Shown here: positions 1,295-64,000 of the stretch, one piece after another
Layout: each line of letters opens with the position of its first letter
How positions within the stretch are numbered: the first letter of the stretch is position 1
From: Bilabrum cf. latius
Taxonomy: Eukaryota
Direction: 5' to 3'
DNA length: 64,000 bases
Assembly (NCBI GenBank): GCA_965178125.1
Contig: OZ237766.1
Coordinates: forward strand, 186,001-250,000
Made by a program: the position numbers and the translations under genes
The notes under the pieces: generated by a model
Told to the model about the DNA's origin: nothing
The model's database searches: none
Seen by the model: the letters and a program-made list of their open reading frames with translations, nothing else

Positions 1295-4200
1295 ATGCCA
1301 GTGAAGCGCCCGAAGCGTATCACTTCAGCAGCTCGCGGTGGGCGGCGTCGCGCGGGGCCCTCATCTGCAAGCCGACATCCCCTTGCATCGCAAGTAGGCA
1401 CACAGGCAGTGTAGCAGTCGCACAGCCATGGTCATGAAGTGGACACGTAGAACACATAGAGCTCAAAAGGGATTAAGTTTTCAGGGCGTAGCCAGCAGGG
1501 TGTCTCGGATACTGCACGTATCAGCGAGGATGACGAGATGATCTTGTTGCAGGGACGCTTGGCATGCCTCTTAGACATAGGGCAACATTCCGCAGCCTAC
1601 AGCAACGAAGATCTAATGGTACACCCTGACGTATTTCCGGAAATCGTACCTGGCACTCTTGTGGGGCTAGTCAAACTAAATGCTGCCTCAACCCGGCATG
1701 CGGTGTCCCTGGCCGAGCCGACTGGCGCAAGCTCTGTCGAGCCGCAGGTGCCTCCATCCCTGCCGAAATCGGGCATGACGCGACATGCGTACACGAACAC
1801 ATTGGGCGGGACCTATTCAGCGGCAGATCGCGCAAAGAGCCCTCGCATGGGCCCCTCGGCCTCACCTGCAGCCTCGTCCTCCAAACGAGCACTGAAGGGC
1901 CTAGAATCTCTGGGGTTGCGAGGAGAACAGGCTGCCGGCGCCGCGCAAATACTGCGAACCTTGGAGATGCGGGGCATATCTGGAGGGTCCAGTGCAGCCG
2001 CGTGGAGGGAGCGAGCATAGGAGCACTTGCTCGCCCCCTCCTTCCACGATGATGCTCACTCCAACCGCAGCCCGGAAGGCGGAGACGGTGCAGTCAACGA
2101 AGGTGCAGAAGGAGGCGCGGATAGCCCCGAACACGAGACTGGTGCCCCGACTGACGGGGCGCTTGGCACTCGTCACACGGATCCTGCCTCGCTGGCCGTG
2201 CCCGCCCTGGCTGTTCGAGGTCTGTCACCCGCCGCCGCTGCCGCACTGGCGTGCGCCATGCCGGCAGGTGCATCGCATGGTAGTGCGCACTAGTCAGCGC
2301 ATGCCTCCCCCGTGATCGCCTATTTGCGCGCGGGTCGCCTGGGGGCAGGCCGCCGCAGCCGATCCTCCGCAACAGTGTCCAAATCGGTCGCTAGGGCGCT
2401 AGGGCTGGTCGAAGGGCACTCGTCACACGGTGGAGCCTCCCTTCTCAGGCCCAGCCGTCCGATCGGGAGACCGCCCGTGCATGGCAGCGCGTTCGGCGGT
2501 CCAGATGGTGGCATGCGCGGCGCCACGGCTGGGATGGAGCGTGGGGAGGGGTCCGAGCAGGGCGAGGACGAGGGGTGGGGCAGCCGTGTGATGCTATTCG
2601 TAGCCACACCGTCGGACGCAACGGCTGACCGTGCCACGGTTATCATCCGACAGCGGTATTTGAACCGGGAAGACATGCTGAGGGCGCGTGCCGCAGCCTC
2701 CGTGCACGTGGCAGTCCAAGGCAGGCAGCTCAAGGCACTCGCGGGCCAGGACCTCCAGGTACAGGAGCTCTGGAGGGGAGGCGCGCGGCTGCACAGTGGG
2801 CTCCTGGGGGACGGGACCCGGCTTGTGTTCCGCACGAGATGCGCTGACGTCAGGCTGCTGGTGCAGGTCAGTCGCGAGATGTGGGGATGGGAAGAGGGTC
2901 AGGGCCGGCTGATGCTGGAGCGGGCCGTGGAGGGGTTCTTGGCCGATTTGGTGGCGGGTTGGCAGGAGCTGGGTGCTCGCCATAGGGTGACCGTACTGCT
3001 GTTCTCCAGGGCGAGGGTAGACGTGGATCCAGTGGTGGTCAAACTGGCCAACCGCAGGCTGGCGCTGCTGGGGCGTTCAGCAGCAGGCAGTGTGGGCGGT
3101 TCAAGTGGTGATGGCATCACGAGCAGTAGCGGCAGCAGCAGCAGCAGCAGCGATGATCGCAGCGCCAGTGGCAGTCGAAGCAAAGATGAAGATGGGCTGG
3201 GTCGGTGTGACGACGAGGGCATCAATAGCGCAGGAACGACCCCGGAGGTTCCTGCAGCTCGACCAGATCAGGGGGCCATGCCCCAGCTCCCAGCCGCGCT
3301 CCGTAGAATCGACAGGCAGCTGGAACGCACAGAGGGTTTCAAGTTGTGGAGCCGTAGCGGGGTGTACGACGATATTTTCGAAGGAAAGCGCGCGCTGTTC
3401 GTGGGGAAGGACGGGTGCGTGTACGAGGACTTCTACCACACGCTGTGCGAGCAGCAGACGTTTCCTGACTGGCGCCAGCTGCTGGGGCCGGTGATGGCCG
3501 CCATCTTGGACATGCCGCGTAAGGCAGGGTGGGGGATTGGGCCGGCGTGGCAGAGGCTCAGGGGGCTGGAGCGAGGGGAAAGGGGGGCAGGTGACATGGT
3601 CGGCGCACCGACAGCCGCGAGTGAGCAAGGCACCCCAGCAGGAAATGCAGCAGAGGCGCGAGCAGGGACCGAAGGCAGAGCATGCAGCAATGAACCTTTG
3701 CTGCCATCATTGCCTTCCTATCCATACTCAGGAGCAGTCCTCCCCTGCCTTGCTATGCAGGGAAACTTCCTGTAGGCCATCAACTTGTGCTTGAACTCCT
3801 TCGAGACTCATTTCCTGCGGAGAGAATTCGAGCACACGGGGCAGTTCATTGCGTGCGTGTCTGCGGGTCAGGGCGCATTTGCCGTTGACACCGAGCTGGC
3901 ACGGCTTACCAAGCTGAGGATGATGGACAATGGGATTGGCTGCGACTTGGTGTGCCTCTCAAAGCCGCCGCTGCACAACACACCCATATTCATCCATCCG
4001 CAGACAGGCAGCAAGGGACAGGCCTGCGCAGGCGCTGCTTCGAAGAAAATGAGCAAGGCAAAGGACCGAGCAACAGCTCACGCTTCTGCTCGGGCGCAGC
4101 CCAAGTCCAGCGCCCGCCCCCCCTCGTCCCGCTTCTCTATGCCCTACTGGATGCATTGCAGCTTCTACCAGGAGGCTGCACCGGGGGAACTGCCAGCGTG

Positions 4201-7200
4201 GGCGCAGGCAGCCGGCATCGACAGAGATGTGTTTGGTGTGGGGAGGGCAGGCCCGGGGGCTGGCCTCTCCTCTGCAGCACCCTCGCGGGCTCGCTCCATG
4301 CAGCCACCGGGCGGCGGAAGGCGGCAGTCGAGCGGGATGATCACAGAGGCGGGAGGTGCGAGCGGTGCAGTGAGAGAAAGCGGTCCTGCCTTGGATCTAG
4401 GGCTGGCCCCGCTGCTGCCAGCCAGGGATGGCGTGGTACCCATCCTCCCAGCGCTGAGGCAAGCTGCGATGCATGGACTCTCAGCCATTGATATGCCCGG
4501 TGGTGCTACTGGTGCTGGTGCTGGTGCTAGTGGGCTTGGGTCGCAGCACCCGTGGGCCCTTGCTACCACGCTGGGCAGAGGGCCAAGCACGGACATCGAC
4601 CGACTGCTGTCCATGTATCTGCCCCGACTAGCCCCGGGAGGCACTGAGGTGCCTTGGGCGCTCCTTGGTCAGTTGAAACTGGAGCGGCTGGTGAGCGTGC
4701 TGCCGATGCCGCACGGGCTAGGTACATCCAGAGTGACCGGTGATAGCGCGGGGTTGATCGAAGACGAAGTAGCCCAAGCAGGCAAGGATGCGGCCCCAGG
4801 TGACATTGAAGTCGATGGCAGCGGCTGGGCCGCATCTCCTCGACTAGGGCGGTGGCACGGCCGGGGCATCTCGAGCGCATCACGAGCTGGGTCCAGTGAT
4901 GGGCAGGCCAAGCCTCGCGCTGATGCACCCTCTATTTCGCTCGGGGATGCGATGCGCCGCGCTCGCGTCAAGATCGCTGGCTTGACCCCCTTCAGGGTCG
5001 TTGATCTGGAGAGATCAAGCGTTGTGGCAACAGCCAGCAAGGCGGGAACTGCGGTGGCGCCTGCCTCGGCTGCAGTAGGGGCTACCCCCCGTGCTGCCGG
5101 AGTGGCATTGGAGCCAGGCAGGGCCCAAGCGGCGGTACGCGGAGAGGCGCAGGCCGCCATTGGAGGGACTTCCTCCAGCCTGCTGGCCCCCACGTCTTTG
5201 CCCGCCGGTTTCCCTGGCTCCATTGCAGCGGGAGCGGCAGCCAGGGTCGCGGCCGGGGGTCGGCCTGTGGGAACTGGCCGGCTCAGCCCGCCCCCAGCGT
5301 CAGAAAGGTCAGCAAGTGCGGCCACATGCCCCACTCAATCTAGTGTGACGAGTGCCACCAACGCCCCTGTACTTGGCGCATCTGAAGCCCTCCCGACTAG
5401 GCAGGTGTCGCCCATGGTGCTGCCTCCCGCGGAGGCGCTTGGCCTGGGCCTTGGGGAGGATGCAAGCGGCAGGATGATGTCCGCAGCCAGTGCAGCCAGT
5501 GCCACGGAGGAGCCTGCAGAGGTGCGCAGAACAGTCCCGGCAGGTCAAGGTGCAGAGCCTGCTGATAAGAGGTCTGGTGCCTGTGCTCAAGCGCAGCATG
5601 TCGGCTCCGGTGTCGCGGCCTCACAGCGCACGGCGGGCGCTGGTCGTATTCAAACGTTCGCACGCAACACCCATTCGCTCGAGCTGCGTGCCACCGTGAT
5701 CGGCACACAGGCAATGCTGACGGGGCTCGTTGATGACGAGGGTGATGCCGAGCATGGCGTGGGTGAAGAAGACGAAGACGAGGACGGCGACGGCGAAGGC
5801 GAAGGCGAGGGGCTGGCTGGTACCCGGTCCACAGCCACGACTGCGGAGATGGCGAAGAAACAGGGCAGCAGCGAACGGAAGGATGGAATCATCGGAGGCG
5901 ATGCATACGCTGCAGATAGTCTGAATAGTGAAAATAGTGAGCTTGCTGTTGGTACTGGGCCTGGACCTGCCGATGGGCGTGCAGTGTCCGGGTCAGGTGG
6001 ACCTGGGCTCGGCAAGGGTGGTGTGAGCACCACGGCAGGTGGCAGCAGCGGTCCAGGGTAGTAGCCGGGGGTTGTGACAGGGGCGCGTACGGAGGAACGG
6101 GGTGCATGGGGACGAGAGGGTGCATCGCACGGCCGTGACGCGGCGGCGGATGCAGTGGCAAGGCGAAGGAGAGAGGACGGCAGGACGCCGCACCTGGGAC
6201 CCTTGGGCAGTGACGCAGACACTCGTCACACCCAAGACGCCAAACACGAGAAGCACGCTCTCCTGCCGAGCCATGGGGCCGGCGGCCGCGGTTCCGAGCA
6301 TGCAGCTGTCGGCCAGTCTCCTCCCAGCGGAGGCGTTGCTCCCATCACGCCGAAGAGTGACTCCACCTGGAGATCTGGGTCAGGGTCAGGCTCGCAGCGC
6401 ACTCGTCACAGCATGGGCAAAGGCAGTGCATTGGGGCGGAGGCGCAGGCGCACAAGGGCGCGAGTGGCGGTTCCGGTGGCGCATTTATGGCTCCGAACGC
6501 CCCAAGGAGTCCCTGTGTGCGCGGTGTCTCTCGAAATGGCGCTCCATATGCTGGCACAGCTGCGGGTGTCCTTCAGCGGCAAAGGAACCGGCAGCCACGG
6601 GGTGGTCGCTGGTGCTAGTGCTGGGGCTGGGGCTGGGGCTGGGTTTTGGGGCGCTGGGTCGCACGGTTCTCTGGATAGCCGATTCATGGTCGGCAGGATT
6701 GGGGATGCTTTGCGCGGCGCCGTTGTTCCGCTGGCCTCTGTCTCCGGGCTTGGGTCGAGCGGTGTGCTTGGCGGGCACAGCTCGTCCGGCACCGAGGCCG
6801 GGGCCGACAACAGCAGCGCCGGGGAGGGCGTCGGGTTGGGCCTGGGGCTTGGCATTGGGCTTGGGATCGGGATGGGGGCGGCGTCTGCTACCAGCACTTG
6901 GGGAGATGCGGAAGGGGCCAGCAGGAGCAGCGACTCTGCAGCAGCACAGCAGCAACAAGAAGGCAGCTCCGTTGACACGCATGTGCGACATGCAGCGGGA
7001 GCAGGGGCCGATGGAGGAGGAGGACGAGAAGGAGAAGGAAAAGGAGCGCACGCTGGCGATGGTGGTCTAGATGATTCACCCCACCTGGATGCCGATAGCT
7101 CTAACAAGGTCGGTACAGGTCTGAATGCCGAGGACGGCGCGATGCACCGGCACGCTTCCGAATCTGACAAGGCCAAGCGGACTGCCGCCGTACCCACTGG

Positions 7201-10200
7201 GGCGCACCAGGCAGTGATCGACGCAGTGGACCGATCTGTGTCATCCCCGGGGCCACGGGGCATGCACGGGTCTGCAAGCATGTCTTCTCTGCCATCCGCG
7301 CTGGTACCCGGTTGGAGTGGCGGAAGCGGGGCCAGGGGCCGCGGCGCCCATCGCGGGAGGGGTGCAAGGCCTAGGGGCAGGGGCGTGCTTCGAGTCACCA
7401 GCAGCAGCAGCCGAGGCCGAGCCACCGCGAGGCGGACCCCAGGTGGGAGCGTTCTGCCTGCACGATCCGTTGGGTTCCATGACCATGGCGGCGGTGGAGA
7501 AGACAGCACCCAGGATCGAACGGCCGCTAGCAGTGGCAGCAGCACGAACGGCGATCTCTCCGGGCCTAGTGCGGCGTCAGGCAGCCAAGGAGGCAGCTCC
7601 GGTGCGCGTGACATCAGCGGCGGGCTGAACGCAGATAGTAAGCCGGGCGACCGTGCAGCGGGCTCGCTGCCTGGCGCTGGCGCTGGTGCGGCCGATCTGG
7701 ATCTAGTGCGGCCGCTGACAGGGGGTCGGCAGCGAGCGAGCAGCGCGGGTTATGCTGGTCTGAGCAAGGTAGGCATGAGGAGAGGTATAGGAAGTGGCGG
7801 GACTCCCAGGTCCAGATCCAGTTCAAGGGGAGGGGTGAGGGGGTGGGTGCCCAGGCGGCGCCGCGCCGGAAGTCGACTCTCGGTCAGCTCTGGCGGGTCT
7901 GCCGGGCCTGCCCGCCTCATGTCCAGCGGAGGCGTGGGCGCCCCGCAGCTCTTCGGGGAGTCCCGGCTGGCCATGCTGCAGGGGAGGGTGCGGGAGGGTC
8001 TGCAGGCTGTGGCGGTGGACGGCGTGCTGGTGGCGGTCGACCGCGGAGAGCCATGGGTGGATTTCACGGTGGGGGGTGGCGGCGGTGTGACGAGTGGCGA
8101 CGAGGCCGGCGGTGCGGTGATCGAGAGGGGTGCCGGGTCCGTTGGGGCGCTGCTTCGGTTTGAGCACTGGGCGGTGCGCGGCGCCGTCGGTTCCGCTGAA
8201 ATGTACTGCGTGCGGGACTTGCTGGCGGGCGGCGTGGGTGCTCCAAGAGAGGTTGCCGTGGTGCTGGACGAGCACGGCACCGGTGGAGCACACGACGAGG
8301 AGGAGGATCGCGACGGTGGAGAGCAAAACGAGGGCGAGGAGCCGGATGCGAGCCACGCCGCCAAGAAGCTGGGCTCGCCGGCTGGTGGTCACGGCGAGGC
8401 GGATGGCACCGTCGCACTTGGGGTGGCGCGGGTGCTGGCCGGGCTGACCCTGGTTCAAGTTCCGGTTTGGTCGCAGGCAGATGCCCCCCCGCGCGTCGCG
8501 GGTCTTTCTGTGAGTGACAGGGCGCCGTTTGTGGCCCGGTTGGGGTTTGCCGACAGCCCTGCAGGTGGGTTTGGCAGGGCCGGGCCGAGGGTTGGACTGC
8601 CCGTAAACGGCGGCTGGATGCGGGGCACTGTGGATGGAGAAAGGTCCACCCCTGCCGGTAAAGCGAGTTGGTCCACAGCACTGCGGCTGCTTCGCCACTC
8701 GGTTCGGTCAACCAGAAAGGCAGCCGACCTTGCATCGCGCCACGTGGGCGGGGTGCTTCAGACTGGCAGTGAAGAGGCCGGTGACTTGCAGCTCGCGGTG
8801 TAGCAATCCCATAGCAGCCGATATCAGCAGCATGGTGCGGTGGTTGCCTCCCGCTGGGCAGAGGAGTCAGGCATAGGGGTGTAGGATAGAGACAAAACAA
8901 CAGATTCCCGACACAGACACACTGGTGGTCCGGCCACCGCCATCGACAGGACCATGCGGCAGGAGCTGATGCTCGGGGCCAGGGAACACATTTTGGACGA
9001 GGCGCGGGTGCCCGGGGAGGTTCATGTCGCAACCATTGCGCGCGCGTCCGACCGTATGTTCCCATCCTGCGTGTATGCAAGCGGCGGTGCGACCGGCAAA
9101 GAAGCAGATGGCATCGGCTCCAGAGATACTCGATTGCTGCAACGTCTCGGAGACGAGTCAATCTTCCGGCCAAGGATTTAGGGCCTACGGAATCTTCGGA
9201 ATCCCAATGTTGTCCTGCTAGAGACGGTGGGAGTTCTGCTGGCCGAGGGAGCAGGCGTGCGGCGCGTCTCGAAGTCTGCGCTGCAGCAGCAGCTGGCTCA
9301 TCAGGGTTAGGGCCTCGGAGATGCAAGCCACTCGGAGCACAGAGGTGTCTCTAGTATCAGGTCCGGACACGACGTGGCTTCCCTTCGTATCCGTGTGACA
9401 GGGGCCGGTCACGGCCGCCAGCACGAAGATGCCAAGGGGCCGGCGCATGGGCACGAGCCGTGTCCTCCCACCCAGGGACAGTTGGACCGCAGAGAGAGGG
9501 TTCTGTCGGAGCCAGCCCTATCCCAGAGGAGCAGGTACGATACAGAGTCGCAGCCTGGATCTCGGGGTTCTGATTCCGAGTCCCGCGGGGACCTGACCCC
9601 CACCGCCCCCCCACTGCAGTCGAAGGATGGCGCTGGCGTCGCTTCCACAGGACGTGAGGGGGCCAGCAGGAGAAGCCAGGTAGATAGCCACTCGGTCAGC
9701 GGTCGGTCCACCGGTGGATCGGAGTCGAGGCGTGGAGTGTCCCGGTGGCGCGGGCGGGCAGACAGCACCGGATCTGGGAGTGCGGTGGGACTGCCAGTGG
9801 ACGGGCCAGCTGGCCGCAGCGGCGCGCAGTCGCAGTCTGTGCCGCACTCGCCTACGTCTGTTCGGGATGAAAAGGACGATGTCGCACTCAAAGGGAATGC
9901 GCAGCATGGTGCCATCGGAGGTATACGCGCAGAGGCAGGGGGTCGAGGATCGATGGCTATGCTTGGATCTGGGCCGCATGACAGTAGCAGTGGCCGCAAC
10001 AGCAGCACCGGCAGTGGTGGTGGTGGTGGTGGTGGTGGTGGTGGGGTAGCAAGCTCGCAGGTCATGGCTCGCCGCGGCATACAGGTACAGGGTACTCGGC
10101 ACTCCTACCCAAGATCACCACTGGCCAAACCCGTCCAAGTTCCGGGGTCTCAGTCTGGCAGGTGGCCTAACACGGCTAGTCGAGTCGCGGCAACTGCATC

Positions 10201-13200
10201 TGACCTGCAGGGGCTTGAGCGTGGGCCGGCGTACGGATCAGCGGGGTCGGGATCGCTTCCCAATTCTTCATCTTTTAGTGGCGTGGGTCTTGTCCGTGGT
10301 ATGGGCATGGGTGCCGTGCAAAGGCAAGGGGTCAGCCTCAGTGGGTCGGACCTAGGACGAAACGCCTGGGGCACCCTCGGCTCTTAGCTGCCGAGCGTAG
10401 TGGAAGAGGTTGCAACCGGCGCTGAGGACCCGCAGCGGGAAGACTCAGCGCAGCCTTCCGGCTCCGGATCCGCGCCTCGTCTCCGGGAGAGATCAAGCTC
10501 AACACCAGGCAGGAGCAGGAGCAGGAGCAGGAGCAGGGCATCCGACAGTGCCAGCACATCCCCCGTCGACAGCGGCTTCGGTTCCCCTGCCACGCTGGCG
10601 GTTGCAACCGATCGTGCGGGAGACGAGGGGGGCACCTCAACGGCCCCCGTTCCCATCCGAGGCGCGGGGGAGCCGGGCAGCCGCCGCAGCAGCCTAACCA
10701 TGGAGCCTCCCAGGGAACAAGGAGGATCCTCAAGGAGCTCTCCTCTGCATGAAGGCCCGCTGCCTCCCGAGGCCATCTCGATGGTGAAGCTCGAGCCGGC
10801 CGTGCCTGCATAGTCTAATCATAATGTTGCAGCGAGGCATGGACAGCTGCCTACCAGTGCTGTGCCCGTCCTGGCAAACTCCAGATCCATCGTCGTACAG
10901 GCGGATGGCGGGAACCAGCAACAGGACGACGATACCGTCGTCATGTCGCTGCCTCCTCCACCCGGGCCTGGGGCCATGTCCAGCAGCTTACCCAGCTCGC
11001 CCGTGTCCGGGCTGCGACAGAGTAGGCATACGAGCCAGTCTAGGTCCAGGCCAGAGTCACCAGTGTAGTCAGCTGATCTGCAGGGAGCTGGCAGGCAGGG
11101 GTAGGGCGACAGCCTGGCTGGCCCAAGCTCAACGGTACTATCCTCAATGCGGGCCCAGAACTAGAGCTAGCAGGGCCAGACGCCATCCCACGTCCAGGGC
11201 AGCCACCAAGCCTCAGAACTGAATACGGTGAAGCTTGCCGCACGGGACGCAGCTGCAGACTCTCTCTCGAGGTCGCATGATCCGAGTGGTGCTGACGCGC
11301 ACTCATCACACCAGTAGGTGCTCCACCCCATGGAGCCGCCCCCCATGACACTCGGCGTGTCAGCCTCCTCTTCTGCCGCATCGTCAACTAGTGGCCACCT
11401 GTCTCAGGATCCCAAGCAGCCGGCAAAACAGCGGCTTCAGCACCAGCCCCCTGTGGGACAGACAGCTTCGCTACATGAACCTGGGCCCGGCAGCACACAG
11501 CCTGCAGCATTTAGTGATCAAAGGACACAACATGCAAGTGCAGCTCCGGCTCCGGCCCAGGGCACGGCTCAGGCTCCGAGCCGACCTGCACATGCAGCCC
11601 ATGCATCGCAGCCAGCCCCCACCCCCAAGCCGGCGCACGGCAGGCTGAACTGGAGGGGCATCAACCCATTCCGTCGCAGGGCAGATTTCGACACGGCCGT
11701 GTCAGGCAACCGTAGCCGCTGGCAGCACATCTTCCCCGCCCTGACGTTTGCTGCGACGGCTGAAGGCTGGGAGGCAGCGGACGCCGCCGGGCCCGCACTC
11801 GCCGCTGCCATGGCTTCTTCCAAGGGGGACGGCTGGGCCAGGCTAAACGAAGCCCTGGAGAGGGGCGAGGGTGACGCGCTGGGCATGCTGGCGGGGGATG
11901 GCGCCGCGCGGACTGCGGAACCGGCTCGGCTGCTCGGTTCGTTCAAGCCGAACTGGCCCGGACTTCTGTAGCCAGCCGTGCTGCCGCTCACCACTGGGTA
12001 CATGCCCACCCCTCAGCAAATCGATTCCGAGTTCGCCATGCACACGTACTCCGTTACGCTACCGAGGAGCATCCTTCGTCTCGAGGACGACGAGGAGATG
12101 GAGGGCGCGGGGGATTGGCAGCGGCTGGGACAGGGAGACGGCCTGCAGGACAGTAGCAGGGCAGGCGTCCCGGCCCCGGTCGCAACCTCGGATCGTGCCT
12201 CCAGGGAACAACAGCGGCTCAGTGGGGCGGTACAGGCGGTGACCGCGTTTCTAGAGATGGTGGGGCAGCGCCTCATGCACGAATACCAGCTCGTCGTTGT
12301 TCCCCAGGGAACACAATCCCCATCCCAAAGTGGTGCTGGCAGCGCGGGGGCTGCTCGTGGCCACCGCGAGAGTGGTGGGACTTGGTCCCAGGGGGAACAC
12401 CTGGCCCAGCGGTCCCGCGGCACAACGGTCCGACAGGCGGTGCTTCGGGAGGTGCGCGTGGCTCTTCAGGCCCTGGGCGTGTCTGGCACTTGGGGCGGGC
12501 TGGGGGCAGGGGCGATGGGCGGGGGGGTGGCCCGGCGGCAGGTGGCCGGCTCGTCGATCCTGGGTGGGATCGATAGCGCGACATTGCGCGGCGCCGGCGG
12601 AGTCGGTTCCGCAGGGTCAGGTCCCGGGGCAGCGGGCCACGACACCGTCACGGTTCGCGCCACCCTGGGAACGTCCATCCACGTGCTGACCCTGGACCTG
12701 GGCCAGGCCACGGTGAGGGTGGCGCTGCACACGCGGGTGGCAAAAGCACGACCAAGCCGGCCAGCGCAGCAGCGGAACGGTGCTTCGGCCGCGGGGCAGC
12801 ATGGAGTATCGAGAGATCTGATTGGCGACGCTTCTGACGCGCGGTCGCAAATATCTGCGACCAGCCGGGACAGGCACTTGCTTCGCCAGGGTGGTCGCAG
12901 GGGCTCCAGCAGCAGCGCTTGGGGAGCGCAGTCTGTGGGGGGCCGCAGCAGCCATGGACCCGGAGCCGATGCAGGCGGCGAGCCTGCCAGGCGGTACGGC
13001 AGGCGCGGGTCCCTGCTGGCAGCGCAGCAGTCACCCGGCAGGTCCACGGTGGTGGACTATGGGCTCTCTGGGCGGGACCAGGACGGTGGCGGCGGCGGCG
13101 GCCGGGAAAGCTCGCAGTCGCTGGTCGTGAGAGGGAGTGTGACGAGTGCGGGGGCTGGGGTAGGTGCCGGTGTGCCCATCCCCAGGCAGGGATCGCAACC

Positions 13201-45600: not shown

Positions 45601-45958
45601 CACTGCACTGGGGTGGCAGCCGCTCCGGCTCGGCCGATTCCTCAGTGGTGGCACGCGGGGCTCGTGCATGGCAGTCCGTGGGGTGCTTCCACCAAGCGGG
45701 CCTGAGAAGCCAGACGCCGCACCCACAGAGGGGGACCCTGACGGCGTTCCCCCCAGGGATGGCTGCACGCTGCTCATGGCAGCTGCTTTCAGTGGATGCG
45801 AGGACTCGGTGCGGGTACTGCTTGAGGCTGGTGCGAGCCCCAGTGCAGTCGATGATTTGGGTCGAAACGCTCTCTGGTGGGCCTCGGCGAGTACAGGGAA
45901 TAGGAAGGGCTCAGCTGGGGCTGGGTCTGCCTCAATCATCAGAGAGTACTTGCAGTAA
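42602..45958 (+). CDS. Ankyrin-repeat protein (about 1,118 aa, 7 in-frame TAG, ends TAA)
   Basis: Track ORFs 42602, 43241, 43691, 44039, 44690 and 45545 are in one frame joined by TAG. Ankyrin-like NALDEAAWHG, SPLVHAANRGQ, DGCTLLMAAAFSGCEDSVRVLLEAGASPSAVDDLGRNALWWA. Start uncertain. Confidence 0.78.
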
Positions 45959-51400: not shown

Positions 51401-54400
51401 GGCGGAATCGTCGCTTTGATTGGCATCATTGCGATCGTGGTCGGTTTGGTGGTGCCCACCATCGTTGATAACGCCTTCGAAGACATCCTTAAGGACAACA
51501 CATACCTGACTCCCGGTTCCGAGGCATTTGAAAATCGGATGGAACCCGTCAAGCGCGGCCTCGCAACCGTGCGGGCCGACCAGATCGACAGCATCGACCT
51601 GGACGACGACCAGTACGAGGACGGCGGCGTGCGCAACATCGTGTACATCAGCAACATCACGAACCCCGAGGCAGCCCTCTACGGCGGCGCACGACCGGAG
51701 CAGACCAACGTGCCGTACGCGTTCCGCAAGTACACCAGGTACGAGAACGCGACCCACTCCAACGGCGACGACAGCCTCACTTGGGACAGCCAGTCCGAGT
51801 ACGTCTACGTGGATGACCCGGCCCGGCTGGACAACGAGGTCCTGGTCGTGCCCAACGTGGGATTCGCGGGGTTCGGGGCCCTCCTACCCACACTGGTGGG
51901 CGCGGCCCGGGCGGTAGACCGGAACTAGGAGCAGGCGGTGTCTCTCCGCGGCAGCGACCCCATCCAGGTGGACGACATCGCCATCCCGCTGTTCGTCTCT
52001 CAGTTCTTGCGGGCGGGAGTGCCCTCTCTCGTGGGTCTCCTCAAAGCATCCGTCCTGCCCGTGGTGCTGCCCATGCGCCTCATGCAGCTCAGGGCACCCA
52101 ACAGCACGTCGCTCGCGGACCAGGCGGAGGCTCAGGTGGGAGGGACCGCGGCTGGCTACACGGCGGATCCAGCGGTGGCTCTCTCCCCCGCGCTGCCGGG
52201 GGGCACCCGAGTCACCGCCGGGGTCTACATGGACCTGATGAACTCTTCCTCCACGTCAGGAGTCGCCCTCATTTCCGCGGCGGGACTCCCCAAGTGGATC
52301 GCAGTGACGTCATCCTTCGCCTCTGTGGACGCGACCGACGCCGCAGCCGTGCAGGCGGCCATGAGCACCCCGGCCTACATGGGGCTGACCCAGGAGTTCG
52401 CCACTGCCTACATCGGCCTGGACGCCTCCTACTCCGACCCCCAGGTGGCCGCGGGCCACGTGCTTCAGGTCGTCCTCATGATGGGCGGGCTCATGGGACC
52501 CGACACCACGACCGCTGGCCAGGTCGTGCCTCAGGTCTTCAACGCATACCTGGGTAGCCTAGGGCAGGCCAGCGTGGAGCTTCCAGCGGCATCTGACGTG
52601 GGCATGGCAGCGGCACAGTTCGGCAGCAACACCATCACGGGAGCTCTTGCACATGCCGGGGGGCAGCTGCCAGGCACCATCACGCTTCCCATGGCAGCGG
52701 GCAGCGCCGCCACCGACGCCAACACCTGCCTGAATGGACCCGCCTCCCTCTTCGCCTCCATCAACGACCCCAACACGCTCAACAGCTTCCCCGAGTTCTC
52801 GTGTCTGGCCAACGCCCCGCCCACCATCTACAGCCAGAGGGCGCACCCCTCCAGCAACGGGCTCGTGTTCGCTGGTAGCAAGCTGCCAGGCATGACGGCC
52901 ATGGCTCTCCTAGGACAGTTTTCTTCGTCTCCTTCTCTCTTCAACGAGGCATCTGCCGTGCTTGGCAGCGCGCTCCCCGATTTCGGGGCGGGCAGCGAGG
53001 CCGTGTGGAGGTTCCGAGCTGCGTACCTGAAGCACATCGCCACCAACGCGACGATGATGACTGCGATCGACGCGCAAGTTGCCAGGCAGTCCGCCTACAT
53101 CGCCGCGCTGGCCGCCAATGGGGACGTGGCGACGACCCTGGGAGCCAAGGTGACCGGGTATGCCACCTCGCTGGCGGCAGATGCAGGGCTCCACGCAGCG
53201 TGCGGGCAGGCCATCCAAGACACGGTATCGAGCAGCATCCCAGCGATGGACTGCTTCCAGGTGCACGACGTGTTCCGCTGGCTGGAGCACAGCAGCAACG
53301 CGCTGGTGTATTTCCCCAATCTGGTGGAGACGTACTACGGCACCGAGGCCACGCCCGCCACCACGCCGGGCAGGTCGAGCGGGAACCTCGCAACGGGGCC
53401 GTACATCAGGGCCACCCCGCGCATGCTGCTGCTGGACGGCTTCCGGGACTCGATCCTGGCCTCGTTGAACGCGGGCATGGTGCCTCCGCTGGTGTCCAAC
53501 GCCACTGCAGGCACCACGGAGACGATCGGCACTGGCAACGGCGGCCGTGACACGTTCTGGCAGATCCAGTCGGTGGAGGGCCAGACGGAGCTGAGGGACT
53601 GGTCTGGGATGGGGGCTGACCCCACCCCCATTGAGGGGTCATACGACGGGCTGAGGCACCCCTACGGCGAGAATCTCGCGGATACTAAGCCAAGCGACCT
53701 GCCTCTCCGGTTCAAGATCTGGGTGTCCCAAGCATCGAGGTTCATGTGGCTGTACAAGGACGTGGTGCCGGGCACCAACGAGCCGCGGGGTGCCATCAAG
53801 GGCCCCAACGGCAAGCTGGAGAACATCCAGAGGTACGCCATCCACGTGGAGAGTGTGACGAGGGCGGCCTACGGGGACGAGGGCAGTCCCCCTTTCGAGC
53901 GGTACGAGAACGACGTTCTCTTCAACTCGCCCGAGGGCTGCATGGTCAGCGTGCGGTCCCACCCCGAGTACGTGCTGGCCCAGGCCACTGCATCCAACCC
54001 CGACAGCACCACTGAGTTCGATCTCTTCCTCACGCAGCCCAACAACCTGGCCTGCAACGAGACCATCCGGGCACTGAGCTCCAGATACGCCGAGGAGCCC
54101 ACGCAGGAGGCCCACGGCTCGTTCATCGACGTGGACCCGGTCTCGGGGCGGTCCATCGGTGCCGCGAGGAGGCTCGCGGGTGTGCTCCGACTGCGCCCCT
54201 TCGGCATGTACCCGCGCCTGGCGGATGGCACGGGCGGGGAGCAGGTGTACGTGCAGCTGCAGTGGGTGGAGGAGAGCAACGAGGCCACCTCGGGGACGGA
54301 GAAGGACCTAAAGGATGCGTACGATTCGGTGAGGAACGTCCGGCTTGGGGTAACCGTGGGGCTGCTTGTCCTCGGGGCCATTCTGCTGATCGTGGGTGTG

Positions 54401-54508
54401 ACGATCATCTTTTTCTGTGGGGGCTCGGCCTCTGGTGCTTCGCGGGCTGGCAAGGACGCACCCTCGGCTGATGTTCGCGCAGGCGGCGCGCACGCCGAGG
54501 TGGCATGA
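51401..54508 (+). CDS. CD36/LIMP-2 (scavenger receptor class B) family protein with enlarged lumenal domain; first exon unresolved
   Basis: Acceptor cgcag at 51400, N-terminal TM, YISNITNPEAALYGGARP...PYAFRKY, HGSFIDVDPVSGRSIGAARRL, QWVEES, C-terminal TM. One TAG (51926) joins the two track ORFs; TGA at 54508. Confidence 0.8.
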
Positions 54509-54921: not shown

Positions 54922-57700
54922 GATCCCCTTGCGACCATAACTGTCCCAAGCTGAACGGCAAAATTCCCAACTTCAGTCGCAAAATTCGGAGCAATAATGT
55001 CCAACTATGGCCCTGTCCTTTTCGGTAATGAAGCAGGTTTTCAAGGAGATTTCAAAACTGTAACCAGATTTTCAGGACGACATGTTCTCTTCAAGCTATG
55101 ACCGACCAAAGATGGCGGCCTTGGCGGCCGGCATGATCGCGCCTGGTAAAAATCACAACTGTCCCAACTTCAAAGTCCTAAATATCTCGCATTTCACACT
55201 TTTTTTTCAGGTTTCCAGTATAATATCAGTATAATCATATATAAAAATATTAAGTTCGACGCTTCTTTGAAGCTGGCATGGCCCTCTTGTTGCTTGCAGC
55301 CTAGATCTTCGCGATCTTGGCCTTGAGGGCCTGATTCTGAGCTCTCATTGCGTCCAGGTTGACTCTAGCCTCCTCAAGCTGCTCAATAATCTCATCTGTG
55401 GACTGATCCTAGAGTGGGCGGTCGCGCATCTGATTTTTCCGCAGCTAAGCGGCGTCACCCCCGCCCCCCCGGGGCCCGATGGCCCCACGGTTGCCTTGCA
55501 GCCCCTTCAGCCTTGGTCGCCTTTTCTGAGATTGTTGTGCCCGAGCTGCGCTTTCAATCTTTGCTTGAAGCCCCAAACCTGCTAATCTCAGGAATGCAGC
55601 CGTGTTGGGGCGTCTCTTCGCCAGGGCATCATGGGCGCTCACCACGCGCTGGGCGCTCGCCAGTCCCCCGAGGTTGTCAGCCGTGGCAGGCCCAAGCACA
55701 GCAGACGAGGATGATGACTACGGCTCAGATGCGCCTGCTCCACTGGCAGCCGTAGTACTCTTCACGAAAGATCCTGACTCTGTCGGGATACTCTCCAGTA
55801 TTTTGGCTACGTCTGACAGCTCACTACCACTGGCCCCCTCCCGGGCCCTCTGCAGCGTGGCCCTGTGCTGCTTGACTTTGTCCATGTCAACTACAACGGA
55901 AGGGTTGAACGGGAGAAGTCCGCACTTCTTGAATCCACTAGCAGCATTCGAAGCTCGAAAGCTGTGGCTTGCACAGGTCAAGACCAGCGGTGCGATCCAC
56001 TCCTCCCCGATCGCGTCACACGACGCCTTCGCTAGTGCCGACTTCTTCGCCTCCGGGGCAGACGCCATGAATGCTTCCATGAAATGAAGCTAGCTCAGAT
56101 AGACACAGAAGTCTTTCTTAACACCACGAAGCTCTGCTTTGAAGGACGACATGCACGCGACGTCCAGGGGCTGCAGGAAGTGGGTGCTCATTGGAAGGAG
56201 GAGCTCGATGTCGATGTTGTTGGCAGCGCAGAACTTCCTGAGGCTCCGCTGGTCATGCGTCGAGTGGTTGTCCATCGTGAGCAGTACTCTAGCTGTGGGA
56301 GGGAGCCTCTCTTCCCTTCGCACTCTAGCTGCGTACTCCACGATCTTTGGAAGCAGCAGGGACAAGGACCCGACGTTGCTGTAGCCGGAGGGGGTCGCAC
56401 AGAACACGATGATGTCGAGGAGCTCGATGTCCGTCTTGGCTAGCACCAAGAAGAGTTTCTGGACAGACGAGGGGTCCACAACATTCCCAGATAGCCTTAC
56501 CTCAGCTAGAATATCCTCGAGCTCCGCCTTCAGGCCGTCGTCGTCGAGCTTGCCCGCATCGCGCTGGGCTTGCGCACGTTGCAACCGGGCTGCCACATAT
56601 TCCTGCTCGCGCTGGATCTCGCGTTTGACCTTTTGAGACTTGCCATCGTAGCGGAAAACGAGAAGGCCAGCAACAATTCCATCCTTCGCTGATACAACAG
56701 GAACGAATGATACGTTTGTATTGGAAAAATGCGTCGCGCGAAGCGCAGCACGGGGCGATTCGGCCCTGACCACCAGACCGGTCCGCCCCGTCAACCCTTG
56801 CGCCCTACCCTGGCTGGGCATGCAGTATGATCACAGTCTCATCTATGTTTAACTACAATCGTTCGTGATAAATGCACGTCCCTGACACGACGACGCCAAG
56901 CTCAGTATTGAGTACCAGGCCTCGTTTTGCTGCTCCTTCGCCAAACCAGTCCAGCAAGCACGTGTGGCTCTCCGCCACGCTACGATTGATTGTCTTCTCT
57001 TCACCTTGCAAATCCTTCAGTTTATGAGCCTTTAGAAATCTGGTTGACCACACACGCGATAGTGGCACCCCATCCTTGTGTGAACCAGCACAAAAGTCGT
57101 TGCGAAGGCCTGTTGCAGTTCGGCGCAGTCCTTCAAGCGTGAACGGCACCTTCTCATCCTCTCGCAATATGACCAGCTTCGCAAGTGCCCGTTCAACATA
57201 CTAGGGCAAATCTGTTCGCCAACACAAATCCTGTAGGGGGCACGTTAATCGTTGCTAGATTCGCTGGAATCGCTTCCGGACAGCGCTAAACGTCTTTTCT
57301 GGGTACACCTCATTTTGAATCTCTCGGTAGATTTCACTGTCATTTTGAACCTTACCGGGATTTCTCTCCCTCCACACCTAAAGCTTTTGCTTGTAAATTA
57401 TATAATCTGCTTGCTGCGCTTCATATAGTCGCATCTCAGGCTGCTCAGCTGTGCATTCTTCTACCGATTGCTCCAAGGCCGTGCGCCAAGCGAGCACACG
57501 ATTCACGTCATCCACAGACACCTGAAGGATAGCCCGAGTATCCGAGTCGTCAATTGCGTCGAGTATTGATGATTCTTTAGAACTGGAGGAGGATGCTTGC
57601 ATAACTCTAGAATTGAGACCTGTATGAGCTCAAGAAGTGGTCGCATTTGAATCTTGGGACAGTTGCAGTTGGTTGGGACAGTTATGGTCGCAAGGGGATC
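54922..57700 (-). mobile_element. pogo-type (Tc1/mariner superfamily, DD35D) DNA transposon with perfect terminal inverted repeats
   Basis: GATCCCCTTGCGACCATAACTGTCCCAA (54922-54949) is the exact reverse complement of 57673-57700. Subterminal AACTGTCCCAA copies lie near 55158 and 57654. Encloses a transposase. Confidence 0.9.
55250..57602 (-). pseudogene. DDE_1 transposase, about 9 in-frame TAG plus one apparent frameshift near 56830; ends TAA
   Basis: CENP-B-like HTH region (LSRVWSTRFLKAHKL), LNIDET (D1), LLTMDNHSTH (D2), LLPMSTHFLQPLDV (D3, 35 residues between D2 and D3), SGFKKCGLLPFNP. Confidence 0.82.
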
Positions 57701-59736: not shown

Positions 59737-62700
59737 TCAGTCCCACAAGCCTGGTCGCCACATAGCAACAGCTCTGCTCGCCAGACTTGGAATTAGGACC
59801 ACCGCCAAGCAGAAAAGTCCTGATCCAACGTTTGACACTCGATGTGCGTCACTCGTGGATCGTACAGCAACTCTGATCGTTGGCTCACTCACCTCGACCC
59901 CTGCATCACCAAATTGCTCGGAAAGCAATGTTCGCAGACCAGGATGCATGGAATCGATGATAGCTTCGACTCGACGCTTCCTCTCGCTGGTCGCATCTTT
60001 GCCGTCAGGTAGTTCTCCAGATAACTGGAGCACGAGGTTTACCCTGGGTGTTTGCTGCAAGTGGCCACTAGTAGTCTCTGCTAGCCACGCAGCAGGAGCA
60101 GCAACGTCTGCCAGCATGTCGGCAAAATGCAGTATAGGTCCACAGTCGATCTCATGAAGCCGTGTATAGGTAAACTGCAGATGGACCTCGACGACGACAT
60201 TGCTCTGCTAGAGGTCAGCCGCTGCTGCGCGACAGCTCCTGCCGTGCCGATCATGATCCAAAGCAAAATCCGTTGCTGTCCAAACTGGATAGTTGTGTTC
60301 GTCGGGGCTCTGGCTTGGCTGCGATACAGTCGTCACAGACGGTACACTTCCTCGCTATGGCTATGCAGTGATAAATGATCCTTCCAAAGGGCCACTAGAG
60401 CTGGCACTCGGGCTGGGACTTTCGCTGCTACTCGGGCTTGTTGATGCGATGGGCACCTGCGGTGGGTACACTGCAATTGTGTACGCTGTAACTCCGATTG
60501 AACCGGGAGTGTGGCCGCCACTACCAGCATCTTGTATGGTCACGGCAATGGTGCGGTTGAAGCCATGCTCTGCACGAGGATCTAGCTGCAGGTCGATGCG
60601 TTGAAGCAGGCTCCCAACCGTCTAGAGAGGTCCAGCCTGGATCTACATGGCTTGACCATTCGGGAGCACCCATACCGTGCGGCCCTGCTGGTCGAGTACA
60701 TCCCCAAGCTCTCGCAGTACGAGCCTATCTACAGCCGCCTGACCATGGCTCCCAATCAGTTCTACAATTGCTGACACCTCATCATCGTCTGCATCCACTA
60801 GCACAACGCCCTCCATGATCGACACAGTGTTAGGAGAGTGACCAGCTGTACCTGCACACTCAGACTACAATGCGATGCCAAGCAGAGCCGGTGGATCGTT
60901 CATCGGTAGCACTTGCAGAGTGATTTCAAACGGCTAGAAATTCGGTGCTGTGTGCGGCTGCGGCGCAAAACTCTGGAACAGCCGGCCTGTAATGCGCCTC
61001 GACGGCAGGTGCTACTCGTCAGCATAAAATGCGATTCGGCCGAGCAGGGCTGTGGCTTCGCCCGAGCTCATGTAATCTCGGGTCTATGCAGACGTGACCC
61101 CTGAAAGATCTAGATCGGCACCTCCAGGCAGCGGCTCGCCCGCAAGGACAAGCTTGTCGCCTTGCCGCGGGTCCTGAATAGACACTATGAACCTGACAGA
61201 GTCCTACTCTTCATCTGTGACGCTGACCCCTTCGAACAATCGTGCAGGTGGCGACTCTTCAAAATAGGCCAAAGGATCCTAGTTGGCCGTGCGAAGACCA
61301 TGCACCTGCGGTGGATCATTCCTGTTTTGTACAATGGCCGAGACACTGGCTTCTCGGGACGTACCATCTGAGAATTCACCCCTGATCAGAATAGTCCGGA
61401 ATCCAGCGATTGCATCACCCAAGCAGCGCATGCCAATACCAGCAAGACCTGCCTGTGTGATGATGCCGCTAGGTCCACCTGACACGGTAGCCCACTGACC
61501 ATCCTCACTGATGCCGATACGGTCTGAGTTGGGATCACCAGACAAGTACAGCTCATCTGTTGCAGTGTCGCCGTATTGAATGCTCACAGTGCAGCGCAGC
61601 ATCGGTGAGCCTGGCAGCCGAAACCCCGCAAACAGCCGAGCGCCCGCAACGTCGTCCTCGTCGACGTGGTAGACAGAGTCACGAAAGCCGAATGAATCTG
61701 GTAGATCCACCGCGGTACGGACAGGTGTGACGCCCATGGTGGGGAAGTCGGCTAGGACCAGTGCACCATGCGTGGAGGCAGGATCGTTGGCAATCGCGTG
61801 CACTCGTCCCATGCGAGGAGTACTTGCACTCGAAATCTTGACAACGCCGTCCTGTGGAGTACCCCACGTATCGCAGTGCAGTGCATCTCCGCGCTGCTCA
61901 TCGAAGGCGGACCAGCAGATCCAGCCGCTATCAAGCACCTCCACCACGACCCGTCCAGATCGGACAAGGAAGGTGTGACTACTGTCCTTGATGCTGCCGG
62001 TGTATGGGTCAATGCTGACGACACCGCCAGTGTAGATATGAAGCCTGCCCTGCAAAACTGGATACGATGACCTTGTTACGGCCAGAACGTCGGTGGATCC
62101 TCGGCTGCTGTAGAGCTCGCGCACCTCGATCAGAGTGTCTGCCGCTTCGGGGAGGTGGGCCACTCTCGCATGAATGTTTCGCAGCTGGCTTCTTGGAGTA
62201 AACACTCGTACTGTCACCTCATCGTGATCGTTGGGTGCGAATACCACGGCCTCGCCAAGCCTGCTTGTCGAGTGACCGGCGCGAATAGGCCAGTGGTCCA
62301 GGCCAATAGCGTTCAAGCCGACTTGAAGCTCTCCTTGGTTCTGCTGACCCTGGAATAGTCCAAGAACATGTGTCTCGCGGAATGTGTCCATCCGAAGGAC
62401 GAACCCGGGAGGCAGGAATTCACTCGTCTACACCCGTTCCACGAGAGAGTCTGCTGGCGGCGTGAGCGGACGCGGGACTGCTAGCTGGTCTAGAACGTCC
62501 CAGTAGAATAGCTACCTACCAGACGGGCTCCGATAGAAACTAGTGACCACATCAAACAGCACGAAACGATCGCTGATTAGTCCAACGTACTCAGCGCGGT
62601 AGCGAAGTACAGGTGCATCGGCCGCAGCCTCCGCAATGCCGGGTATCTGGCCATGCCTGACGACACCCGTGTCGAGATCTACAGCAGCTGGTGTGAACCT

Positions 62701-64000
62701 CGTGCTCCACTTCTCAATGAACAGGAACCTGCTTCGCACCAGCACACCACCAGCGGTGTGCCCCTCTGCTGCATCCGGCTTACCGACCCAAACAGGCCGT
62801 TTCACGCCGTCAAAGTACCACGCGTCTTGATTGCAACCCTGCAGCAGGTACCCGCCGTGCTAGACAGTAGCCACATAGTTCCCTTGCATGCATCTCACAT
62901 CATCGTGGGATACGTTCCGTCGGGGCTGAGAACAGCCCCTGTCGCTGCCTGCATCGTACCCATCGCGCCCTTCAGTCGTGGACACTGGGGGCAGGCTAAG
63001 AAGATCGATGGGCCCCTCGCCTTCGCGCCCAAAGCACAAAAACGTAGGCCCAGAATTCGGCTTTCCATAGCTGTGCCAGCATGTCACCCCGACCTTGGTG
63101 ATCTCGTGCTTGCGAGCATCAATCTGCTAGAATGCGAACCGGGTGTCGATCCAATCCACCGTTGCTTGCTGTACGTCGGGGATATGAACACGGTGCGACA
63201 CCGAGGCTTCGCTGGTCATTCCGATCTCACTGTTCCAATCAATGCTAGTGACACCAAGGCCAGAAACTCTGTCCGGGGACAGAGAGCGTGATAGCACAAC
63301 TAGCGGAGGGTGGCCTGTGCTAGGGACAGCCACAGTCATCTCTGCGGCGGGCCACGAAGCGATTGCCACTGTTCCAACTGTGAGGAGCTCTGTGTTTCCA
63401 ATGCTGGTGGTGACTGGCACCATCAGCTGGGATGGAGTCGATCGGGTCATCATCAACATGCTAGGCCATCCAGTGCTAGCATCGGTTGGTTTTAGCTGCA
63501 CCACTGATTCGATGTCGCTGTCGAGTCGCCTGACATGCTGCAAAGCAGGAGGCTCAGACCCGTCCTAGACTGCGGCATACACATCATAGTACGTGGCAGA
63601 GCCCCACCGCCATGAACGAAGATATAGAGTCCTGCTGGCATCGGCCGTCCCCAGGAGAGACATCTTGGGGAATTCGTCCGGGGTCTGAGGGAGGCACTAC
63701 GCCGTTGCAGAGGCGGTATTCCAAACAAAATTGCACCGTATTGTGGGCTTATTGCGGGGTTTATCCACGTAACCCAACATTAAGCCGGTCCCGGGAGCAG
63801 GTCCGCTCGCGTGCACGTCTCTGGTGTCAGCTAAGTCGAGGGCAGCACCGTCAGTGTTTCGCAAAACGATCTTGGTTTCAGCTCCTGTGTTGAGCTCCAC
63901 GGCGATCTGCAACGTGTAGACGTTGGAGTCTACGTATGCCGCGTATGTCAACCGTGCGTCCCTGTGCGAAGCGCAGTGCAGTGCATCTCTCGACGCACTC
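59737..64000 (-). CDS. Large cell-surface protein with cadherin/Ig-like repeats, Ser/Pro stalk and C-terminal hydrophobic anchor; 5' end outside the window; about 17 in-frame TAG
   Basis: Track ORFs 63697, 63127, 62860, 62512, 61279, 60643, 60361 and 59737 share one frame joined by TAG. VQNRNDPP and VLPMNDPP linkers, VSVTDEE and VLVDADDD motifs, STSPSSSESPSPS, terminal GLFCLAVVLIPSLA; TGA at 59737. Confidence 0.72.

Follow-up and report, generated by a model that had tools for sequence, protein, structure and literature searches.

The 64,000-nucleotide window analysed here (positions 186,001 to 250,000 of contig OZ237766.1, assembly GCA_965178125.1, Bilabrum cf. latius) carries long reading frames that are interrupted by TAG and by no other stop triplet. 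We conclude with high confidence that UAG has turned from a stop into a sense codon in the nuclear DNA of a GC-rich, intron-poor eukaryote, and that UAA and UGA are its sole terminators. An earlier inspection of the letters alone (the sequence-only reading) had proposed the same arrangement, and frame statistics, conserved alignment columns, spliced contigs, relatives and the ends of paralogues all agree with it. The window, which is free of N, has a GC content of 52-68%, and this composition, together with introns of the GT..AG type and mobile elements, bears out the description of the genome as not ciliate-like. The residue read at UAG is probably glutamate (E), although glutamine (Q), the usual outcome in other lineages, tempers our confidence.

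Frames were read from stop to stop across the window under each code variant in turn. With TAG as a sense codon the longest frames reach 5367, 1420, 1342, 1242, 1159, 1123 and 1037 codons. Under the standard code the maximum drops to 912 codons. Reading TAA as sense instead leaves it at 912, and reading TGA as sense raises it to 1194, the gain expected when the commonest stop triplet is removed from GC-rich DNA. Taking TAA as sense lengthens no supported gene; its only large gains are antisense frames. Eleven frames totalling 15,491 codons hold 98 in-frame TAG, 0 TAA and 0 TGA, whereas in their two off-frames the counts are 113-114 TAG, 266-291 TGA and 33-50 TAA each, TAA being the rarest. The claim that unrelated frames are interrupted solely by TAG thus stands, and the contrary pattern that the sequence-only reading had envisaged, in-frame TAA or TGA as common as TAG, comes out at 0 against 98. 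Its manual TAG counts proved exact (29 in IML1/DEPDC5, 7 in a 'histone-fold' frame, 5 in TIR copy 1, 7 in the ankyrin frame, 12 in the kinase and 17 in a surface protein), and both mobile elements do bear TAG, with counts of 8 and 5.

The frequency of TAG is 0.63% in frame versus 0.73% off frame, and the triplet therefore behaves like an ordinary codon. The zeros for TAA and TGA are partly circular because these two triplets delimit the frames, so that the true evidence is frame length combined with homology. TAG is scarce or absent in compact, strongly codon-biased genes (one in the 1037 codons of the CD36-family gene, whose GC content at third codon positions is 0.85, and none in the S10 serine carboxypeptidase exon or the RNA ligase gene) and frequent in long low-complexity genes. 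Judged by their family matches, the long frames are eukaryotic nuclear genes.

The longest of them encodes IML1/DEPDC5, and two of its TAG codons fall in conserved motifs:
1295..17380, forward strand: IML1/DEPDC5 (GATOR1 subunit) gene, with ATG at 1295, 29 TAG and TGA at 17378-17380; Pfam PF12257, 3.3e-60
3773..3775, forward strand: TAG at IML1 codon 833, in the GN(F/I)L-E-AINL core (here GNFL-TAG-AINL), with 150 homologues aligned
11969..11971, forward strand: TAG at IML1 codon 3565, in the NW..L.PA.LPLTT.Y.P motif of the homologue alignment

The IML1 frame is open from 1277 to 17380 on the forward strand, 5367 codons with 29 TAG and neither TAA nor TGA, whereas its off-frames contain 6-9 TAA. 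In a comparison with a profile of 60 homologues, matches fall at codons 437-583 and 705-967, which make up the N-terminal domain, and at codons 3253-3818, the central DEPDC5 block (1.7e-33), all in one frame; a weak C-terminal match at codons 4889-4932 (E-value 0.036) lies in the same frame. Fourteen TAGs lie between the conserved blocks at 437-967 and 3253-3818. At codon 833, 140 of the 150 homologues carry E and 7 carry Q; the rest have P (2) or D (1), with no L and no S, which upholds the placing of a TAG within the DEPDC5 core. Codon 3565 follows the N-terminal domain in frame at a distance of 2700 codons. Its own column is variable (of the 61 residues aligned, S and T account for 19 each, E for 9 and Q for 2), and the columns that flank it are W in 60/61, P in 60/61 and P in 61/61, all of which the window matches. 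The DEP domain was not detected by Pfam in this frame.

The predicted IML1/DEPDC5 homologue is itself outsized: a single exon encodes its approximately 5360 residues, and long inserts rich in Ala, Gly and Ser make it roughly three times as long as is usual (1400-1900). Its nearest neighbours in the IML1 tree (P0128, P0184 and P0179) are likewise long, at 2438-3223 residues. A single-exon gene of 16 kb is unlike what is known of green algal genes. Two occurrences of A-V-TAG-Q-S-H-S are present in the frame, one at codon 46 and one at codon 2509 (1412-1414 and 8801-8803, forward strand).

A hybrid histidine kinase on the opposite strand provides two further TAGs in alignable positions:
46088..49746, reverse strand: hybrid histidine kinase gene, with a putative ATG at 49746, 12 exonic TAG and TGA at 46088-46090; HATPase_c 7.7e-19, Response_reg 6.5e-11
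48299..48301, reverse strand: TAG at codon 423, in the kinase H-box (FHEARVPL-TAG-AV), placed by homologue motifs
46397..46399, reverse strand: TAG at codon 1057, in the receiver domain (DGKEAV-TAG-AA), the remainder of the domain lying downstream of the TAG

The H-box motif is present in 117/120 homologues, and the column occupied by TAG is N in 48/51 and T in 3/51 distinct motifs; the sequence-only reading was right to place a TAG within the kinase H-box (HEARVPL-TAG-AV, 48299-48301). The receiver-domain column is mixed (of 171 rows, 79 have E and 53 have L, with D in 11 and A in 10), and both the Pfam match and the alignment show the domain running on past its TAG. Codons 468, 475 and 478, also TAG, lie within a low-complexity insert and are uninformative on the residue. 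The gene has one intron of 92 nucleotides (49367-49458, GTGAGC..CCGCAG). Of the 12 TAGs in the kinase open frame, that at codon 52 falls within this spliced-out intron, and one additional TAG lies in the upstream exon; the N-terminus reads MFPVPI-TAG-D from the start at 49746.

Contigs of sequencing runs bear on whether these TAGs persist in transcripts, and here the kinase gene is joined by its neighbour:
50893..54508, forward strand: CD36-family gene, with ATG at 50893, one TAG at 51926-51928 and a TGA stop; Pfam CD36 4.2e-20

Twelve runs are listed as sharing the interval 44001-54000, six of them with half or more of the sampled words, and contigs of four (X1, X5, X6 and X7, from four studies) were compared with 42001-58000. 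Contigs of X5 and X6 contain the kinase joint 49366/49459, which X1 lacks, and an X6 contig skips the CD36 intron at 50917-51400 (484 nucleotides, GTGAGT..CGCAG), where X1 again has no joint. The two introns have canonical GT..AG ends on opposite strands, each fitting its gene, and we therefore take the joints to reflect spliced RNA; they also fix the starts of the kinase and CD36 genes, the CD36 protein beginning MNTCVWFS at 50893. Depth in X1 is flat near 43, and in X5 and X6 it is very uneven. From the two joints missing in X1 together with this uneven depth, X5 and X6 are read as holding transcripts.

A spliced X5 contig spans the kinase TAGs at 49726, 49289, 48854 and 48389 with 0 differences, a spliced X6 contig spans the CD36 TAG at 51926 with 0 differences, and X6 contigs over 46111-49366 likewise show 0 differences. 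Across all four runs, from four studies, the TAG-bearing stretches are covered by contigs with 0 differences. Because TAG is unchanged in spliced contigs, it is neither edited nor spliced out. Retention of TAG in mRNA, which the sequence-only reading had proposed to confirm, is thus borne out at five TAGs in intron-free contigs of X5 and X6, these being contigs from runs whose type is guessed.

Variant contigs tell a similar story about coding function. Among the differences listed, synonymous codon changes number 13/23 in X5 and 9/11 in X6, on either side of the TAG, and among the 34 changed codons listed, beyond which lie a further 73 differences, none is a change of TAG to another codon. 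CD36 codon 178, the TAG itself, lies within an insert and is uninformative on the residue. A database protein of 179 amino acids with 93% identity, P0292, ends exactly before this TAG, as expected of a standard-code gene caller that stops at a conserved TAG. X5 matches the kinase gene exactly, yet its CD36 contig is a variant only about 97% identical (51465-54100, depth 260-355). P0292 resembles this X5 variant, which may represent another allele, a paralogue or a different strain.

The trait extends to a relative. L001, a metagenome contig of 1813 bases and 55% GC, covers the same IML1 region at 46% identity and stays open over 604 codons that include 3 TAG and 0 TAA or TGA, so that in-frame TAG is common to the window and a fairly distant relative. 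Fragments of L001 cut at its TAGs (P0203 and P0291) are present in public protein collections, where P0292 and P0121 are TAG-cut fragments as well. Searches for relatives with the CD36 gene returned one fragment and with TIR copy 1 none, and a search with the IML1 alignment gave no match in the genome-contig or viral-contig collections. In a single-gene IML1 tree the window groups with L001, followed by the long forms and the EukProt entry P0215 (support 0.76-0.91); the named neighbours are amoebozoans and animals. The gene prefix of P0215 is presumably that of Corallochytrium, too weak a basis for naming the lineage.

The identity of the terminators can be examined most directly in a pair of paralogues:
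33112..36840, forward strand: membrane protein with a TIR-like part, copy 1, with 5 TAG, ending ALHPG-TGA
37985..41506, forward strand: TIR-like paralogue, copy 2, spread over three frames, the two long ones with 10 TAG between them, ending ALHPG-TAA at 41504-41506

As the sequence-only reading had noted, the two copies stop at the same residue, copy 1 with ALHPG-TGA (36838) and copy 2 with ALHPG-TAA (41504). Fourteen frame ends were inspected, of which 11 are TGA and 3 are TAA. The claim that genes end at TGA or TAA therefore holds for 14/14, with the reservation that such ends are fixed by construction and homology supports few of them. In the ankyrin and transposase frames the terminal TAA is followed by a TGA 8 and 5 codons later.

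Several points weigh against the conclusion that UAG is a sense codon and have to be set beside the alternatives. The support is at the level of nucleotides (genomic DNA and spliced contigs). No tRNA gene and no Rfam match, rRNA included, was found in the 64-kb window, which also lacks eRF1. The kinds of run assigned to X5 and X6 are guesses ('RNA?', and for X5 'probably DNA'), no listed run is recorded as RNA, and the evidence consists of contigs, not raw reads. Ends at TGA or TAA follow from the way frames were drawn, and homology backs only the kinase receiver domain, the end of the S10 profile and the C-terminal membrane helix of CD36. Absence of any code change, with the TAGs arising from assembly errors, pseudogene mutations, RNA editing or leaky readthrough, would nevertheless be so improbable as to be negligible. 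Frame changes in TIR-like copy 2 and in the transposon copy do indicate some decay or error, but pseudogenes would gain TGA and TAA too, and neither occurs in the 15,491 codons; the agreement of contigs from four studies over the TAG stretches, the mostly synonymous variant differences and the unaltered TAGs in spliced contigs point the same way, and 29 readthroughs in one protein would need decoding so nearly complete that it amounts to reassignment. We consider it very improbable that UAA is a sense codon as well, rare here merely through high GC. UAA and UAG usually change jointly (PMC5304391, PMC11687900), and TAA is indeed the rarest stop triplet off frame; however, its in-frame count is 0 both in the eleven frames and in IML1 alone, where the off-frames do contain it, reading it as sense extends antisense frames and no supported gene, the TAA of TIR-like copy 2 stands exactly at the position of the TGA of copy 1, and the ankyrin and transposase frames meet a TGA a few codons beyond their TAA. 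Somewhat less remote, though still improbable, is that UAG is mostly sense yet terminates some genes according to context, for which Condylostoma, karyorelicts, Blastocrithidia and Amoebophrya sp. ex K. veneficum offer precedents (PMC12005148). Since the ends were defined by TAA and TGA in a small sample, occasional termination at UAG could have gone unseen, and TAG does lie no more than 10 codons from the end in two frames (codons 926 and 929 of 935). Against this, the frames with conserved C-termini (the receiver domain, S10 to profile position 417/420 and the CD36 helix) reach TGA with no TAG near the end, and TAG is nearly as frequent in frame as off frame.

Given that UAG is sense, its meaning, on which the sequence-only reading had been silent, was assessed with profiles built from homologues only, using emission probabilities at the five alignable TAGs of the window under a flat prior. 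The probabilities for E and Q are 0.60 and 0.05 at IML1-833, 0.098 and 0.053 at IML1-3565, 0.050 and 0.050 at IML1-4916, 0.164 and 0.066 (weighted) at receiver-domain codon 1057, and 0.032 and 0.017 at H-box codon 423, giving E:Q ratios of 11.6, 1.9, 1.0, 2.5 and 1.9 in that order. The resulting posterior for the window is E 0.79, N 0.08, T 0.04 and S 0.025, with Q and L outside the best six. At IML1-833, E is found in all members of the window's clade that were examined (P0121, P0184, P0179, P0215, P0128 and L001); of these, L001 and P0121 are the closest relatives; the L001 codon is GAG, and P0121 is known as a protein only. Between paralogues, the codon facing a TAG is GAG in 2 pairs and CAG, TAC, GCG and TAG in 1 each, with R and S also seen by eye in the C-terminal part. 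A likelihood based on neighbouring context also ranks E first, although calibration shows it to be weak, an E-Q score at the real level arising in 22% of hidden-Q and 48% of hidden-E sets, and it counts for next to nothing here. From these comparisons of sequence, glutamate appears the most likely residue; we hold this with moderate confidence, lowered because Gln is the usual outcome elsewhere. Two other candidates find no support: leucine (L 0/150 at IML1-833 and outside the best six residues) and serine (S 0/150 there, posterior 0.025).

The case for Glu has evident weak points, and most of them speak for the same reassignment with UAG read as glutamine by a tRNA-Gln(CUA), which we regard as possible but doubtful. 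Just five columns of the window were usable. The first TAG of L001 occupies the Q position of (I/V)-Q-(M/V)-S-x-E-M-W, where homologues have Q in 143/147 and never E and where the window has CAG; adding this column moves the posterior to E 0.71 and Q 0.14, and a second alignable TAG of L001 also stands opposite a CAG of the window. Of the paralogue pairs, the one with TAG/CAG lies beside a conserved block and favours Gln, and the one with TAG/TAC fits Glu poorly. A TAG also occurs inside a Q-rich run at IML1 codon 4714 (CAG CCG CAG TAG CAG CCA), the IML1-4916 column is R in 50/58 with Q 1 and E 0, and Q appears in the 7 homologues already counted at IML1-833. Glutamine is, moreover, the commonest outcome of reassigning UAG or UAR (UAA and UAG together), with Iotanema, Protocruzia and phyllopharyngeans as precedents (PMC11687900). 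What tells against it is that those 7 sequences form a separate group sharing GN(F/Y)LQ(V/A), one of them (P0122) from a tick, whereas the window's own clade has E throughout; that E:Q ratios are at or above unity in all five columns; and that two paralogue pairs are TAG/GAG. A reading in which UAG means Glu here and Gln in L001, or is ambiguous between the two, would reconcile the best columns, since the window TAG falls where homologues have E in 140/150, the L001 TAG falls where they have Q in 143/147, and the codon of the other organism at each site is the standard one, GAG and CAG respectively; the window alone gives E 0.79, and the L001 column alone gives Q 0.67. We nonetheless find this improbable, as there is one strong column per organism, L001 is a short metagenome contig, a single E/Q replacement at either site would end the conflict (profile probabilities 0.05 and 0.03), and a switch between two sense readings has little precedent.

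Glutamate thus remains the preferred meaning, and the machinery behind it can be outlined in general terms. By a published argument (PMC5304391), decoding of UAG without UAA implies that the decoding tRNA has the anticodon CUA. Such a tRNA would pair with UAG and not with UAA, and could derive from tRNA-Glu(CUC) or tRNA-Gln(CUG) through one anticodon change. The release factor eRF1 would have lost recognition of UAG.

Among catalogued codes, UAG as Gln is NCBI table 15, reassignments of UAR are tables 6 and 27-31, and peritrich ciliates and Blastocrithidia, in which UAR is Glu, are tables 30 and 31. UAR reassignments are reported in many ciliates, ulvophytes and hexamitids, and in the aphelid Amoeboaphelidium (PMC6299283). 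Reassignment of UAG alone is described in the rhizarian exLh (Leu) and in Iotanema (Gln) (PMC5304391), and further in Scotinosphaera (Ser), phyllopharyngean ciliates (Leu, Gln) and Protocruzia (Gln), besides a ciliate with UAA as Lys and UAG as Glu (PMC11687900). The sequence-only reading had listed one rhizarian, Iotanema and some ciliates, an incomplete set from which, for example, the green alga Scotinosphaera is missing (PMC11687900).

Iotanema spirale (Fornicata) is, like the window organism, a non-ciliate in which UAG alone is reassigned and UAA and UGA are stops, and the same prediction of a tRNA with a CUA anticodon and an altered eRF1 was made for it; it differs in reading UAG as Gln, where Glu is more likely here, and in being known from a transcriptome, where genomic DNA and spliced contigs are at hand here (PMC5304391). 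The window is set apart from it by its GATOR1 IML1, CD36-family and hybrid kinase genes and its 52-68% GC. The rhizarian exLh (Sainouroidea) also reassigns UAG only and keeps UAA and UGA as stops; its UAG is rarest in highly expressed genes, which resembles the scarcity in codon-biased genes here, and both organisms were detected within runs labelled with other organisms, but UAG in exLh is Leu, a residue without support in the window at IML1-833 (0/150) (PMC5304391). In the oligohymenophorean ciliate PL0344, UAG is Glu and UAA has a separate fate, as in the window; unlike the window organism it is a ciliate with UAA as Lys and UGA as its only stop, whereas UAA is a stop here (PMC10553269, PMC11687900). 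In the literature covered, PL0344 is the sole described case found in which UAG alone is Glu (PMC10553269, PMC11687900). Peritrichs and Blastocrithidia share the decoding of a stop codon as Glu, by a suppressor derived from tRNA-Glu, but in them UAA and UAG are both reassigned, and in Blastocrithidia UGA too, against 0 in-frame TAA or TGA in the window (PMC12153298).

Scotinosphaera is another independent instance of UAG changing alone with UAA kept as a stop, as are the phyllopharyngean ciliates and Protocruzia of UAG changing alone; it differs in its Ser, which is unsupported here (PMC11687900). The aphelid Amoeboaphelidium protococcarum is an Amorphea-side non-ciliate associated with algae in which TAG and TAA are both apparently Gln, so that its TAA is sense where that of the window is a stop (PMC6299283). 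One run with a small share of the window words bears the label 'algae metagenome', which is no evidence of a like association here. In contrast to the GC-rich window, Amoebophrya sp. ex K. veneficum has AT-rich DNA and employs all three stop codons (PMC12005148). In the literature covered, supplementary tables being outside its scope, no description was found of a GC-rich non-ciliate with UAG alone as Glu or Gln. Because we found no known code that suits a GC-rich genome in which UAG is Glu or Gln and UAA terminates, the window would be a further case of UAG-only nuclear reassignment, and would represent a new code variant if Glu were confirmed.

Changes of the nuclear code are rare, and a change of UAG without UAA is rarer still. 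Such cases put the supposed paired evolution of UAA and UAG to the test, and reveal which changes of tRNA and eRF1 suffice to uncouple UAG from UAA. If UAG is indeed Glu with UAA as a stop, the code is a variant that we have not found described; if it is Glu here and Gln in L001, or both, a reassigned stop would have changed or blurred its meaning within one non-ciliate lineage. There is also a practical consequence. Standard-code gene callers cut the proteins of this organism at every TAG, and its genes are therefore mis-annotated wherever it occurs, including in runs labelled as other organisms.

The remaining features of the window are these:
23010..24041, forward strand: RNA ligase gene, no TAG, TGA end; Pfam RNA_ligase 1.6e-27
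23888..27916, forward strand: low-complexity frame (the 'histone-fold' frame above), 1342 codons, 7 TAG, TGA end; no Pfam match
28073..30880, reverse strand: frame of 935 codons, 8 TAG, TGA end; no Pfam match
31812..32762, forward strand: last exon of a serine carboxypeptidase (Peptidase_S10) gene, no TAG, TGA end; Pfam 6.9e-44, profile positions 178-417 of 420
42587..45958, forward strand: ankyrin-repeat protein frame, 7 TAG, TAA end; Pfam Ank and Ank_2, 1.1e-08
55250..57629, reverse strand: pogo/Tc5-like DDE transposon, two overlapping frames, 5 TAG in the DDE frame, TAA end; DDE_1 1.5e-07
59737..63999, reverse strand: repeat-containing 'surface' protein frame, 1420 codons, open at the window end, 17 TAG, TGA; no Pfam match

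Some labels of the sequence-only reading are not confirmed by Pfam. The frame 23888..27916 matches no family, which leaves its 'histone-fold' name unconfirmed, and the 'TIR' label rests on a TIR_2 score of 17.5 bits, below the Pfam cut-off of 28. The 680-codon frame at 30983..33025 on the reverse strand is rejected as a gene, since the S10 match lies on the opposite strand and the frame is the antisense of the S10 serine carboxypeptidase gene. That gene (30700-32762, forward strand) has at least 4 short exons in changing frames, the upstream ones at about 30720-31800, with no TAG in its visible exons. That its antisense stays open for 680 codons is a measure of how long spurious frames can be in this GC-rich DNA. 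No relative of the RNA ligase was found by sequence in the PDB, and Atlas entries for the RNA ligase and the S10 exon yielded no usable taxon. The reverse-strand frame 28073..30880 is, from its sequence, probably part of a retroelement.

The TIR-like copies are tandem cysteine-rich membrane proteins, 74-94% identical in blocks and with an identical tail of 79 bases. The TAG at 39788 of copy 2 is common to copy 1 (35014). Near 41430 copy 2 changes frame at a run of C, 7 long in copy 1 and 10 in copy 2, and its broken structure may reflect introns, decay or mis-assembly. Inside the ankyrin gene a depth spike at 44671-45204 reaches 1357 in X1 and 1172 in X7, and contigs step back by 33-38 bases (44835-44872), hinting that the coding sequence holds a short tandem or low-complexity repeat that varies. 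At 50011-51078, in the space separating the kinase from the CD36 gene, X1 depth rises to as much as 5293 against about 43, with many joints and loose ends at 50158, 50493, 50579 and 50646; this interval is probably a dispersed repeat.

The transposon (54923-57699, reverse strand) has an X1 depth of about 432, about ten times that of its surroundings (about 43), and an HTH_Tnp_Tc5 match of 0.013, below the family cut-off. At 56778 the contigs of X1, X5 and X7 are one base shorter than the window. By frame arithmetic this difference would merge the frames 56502-57629 and 55250-56830, in which case the window copy, or its assembly, is frameshifted.

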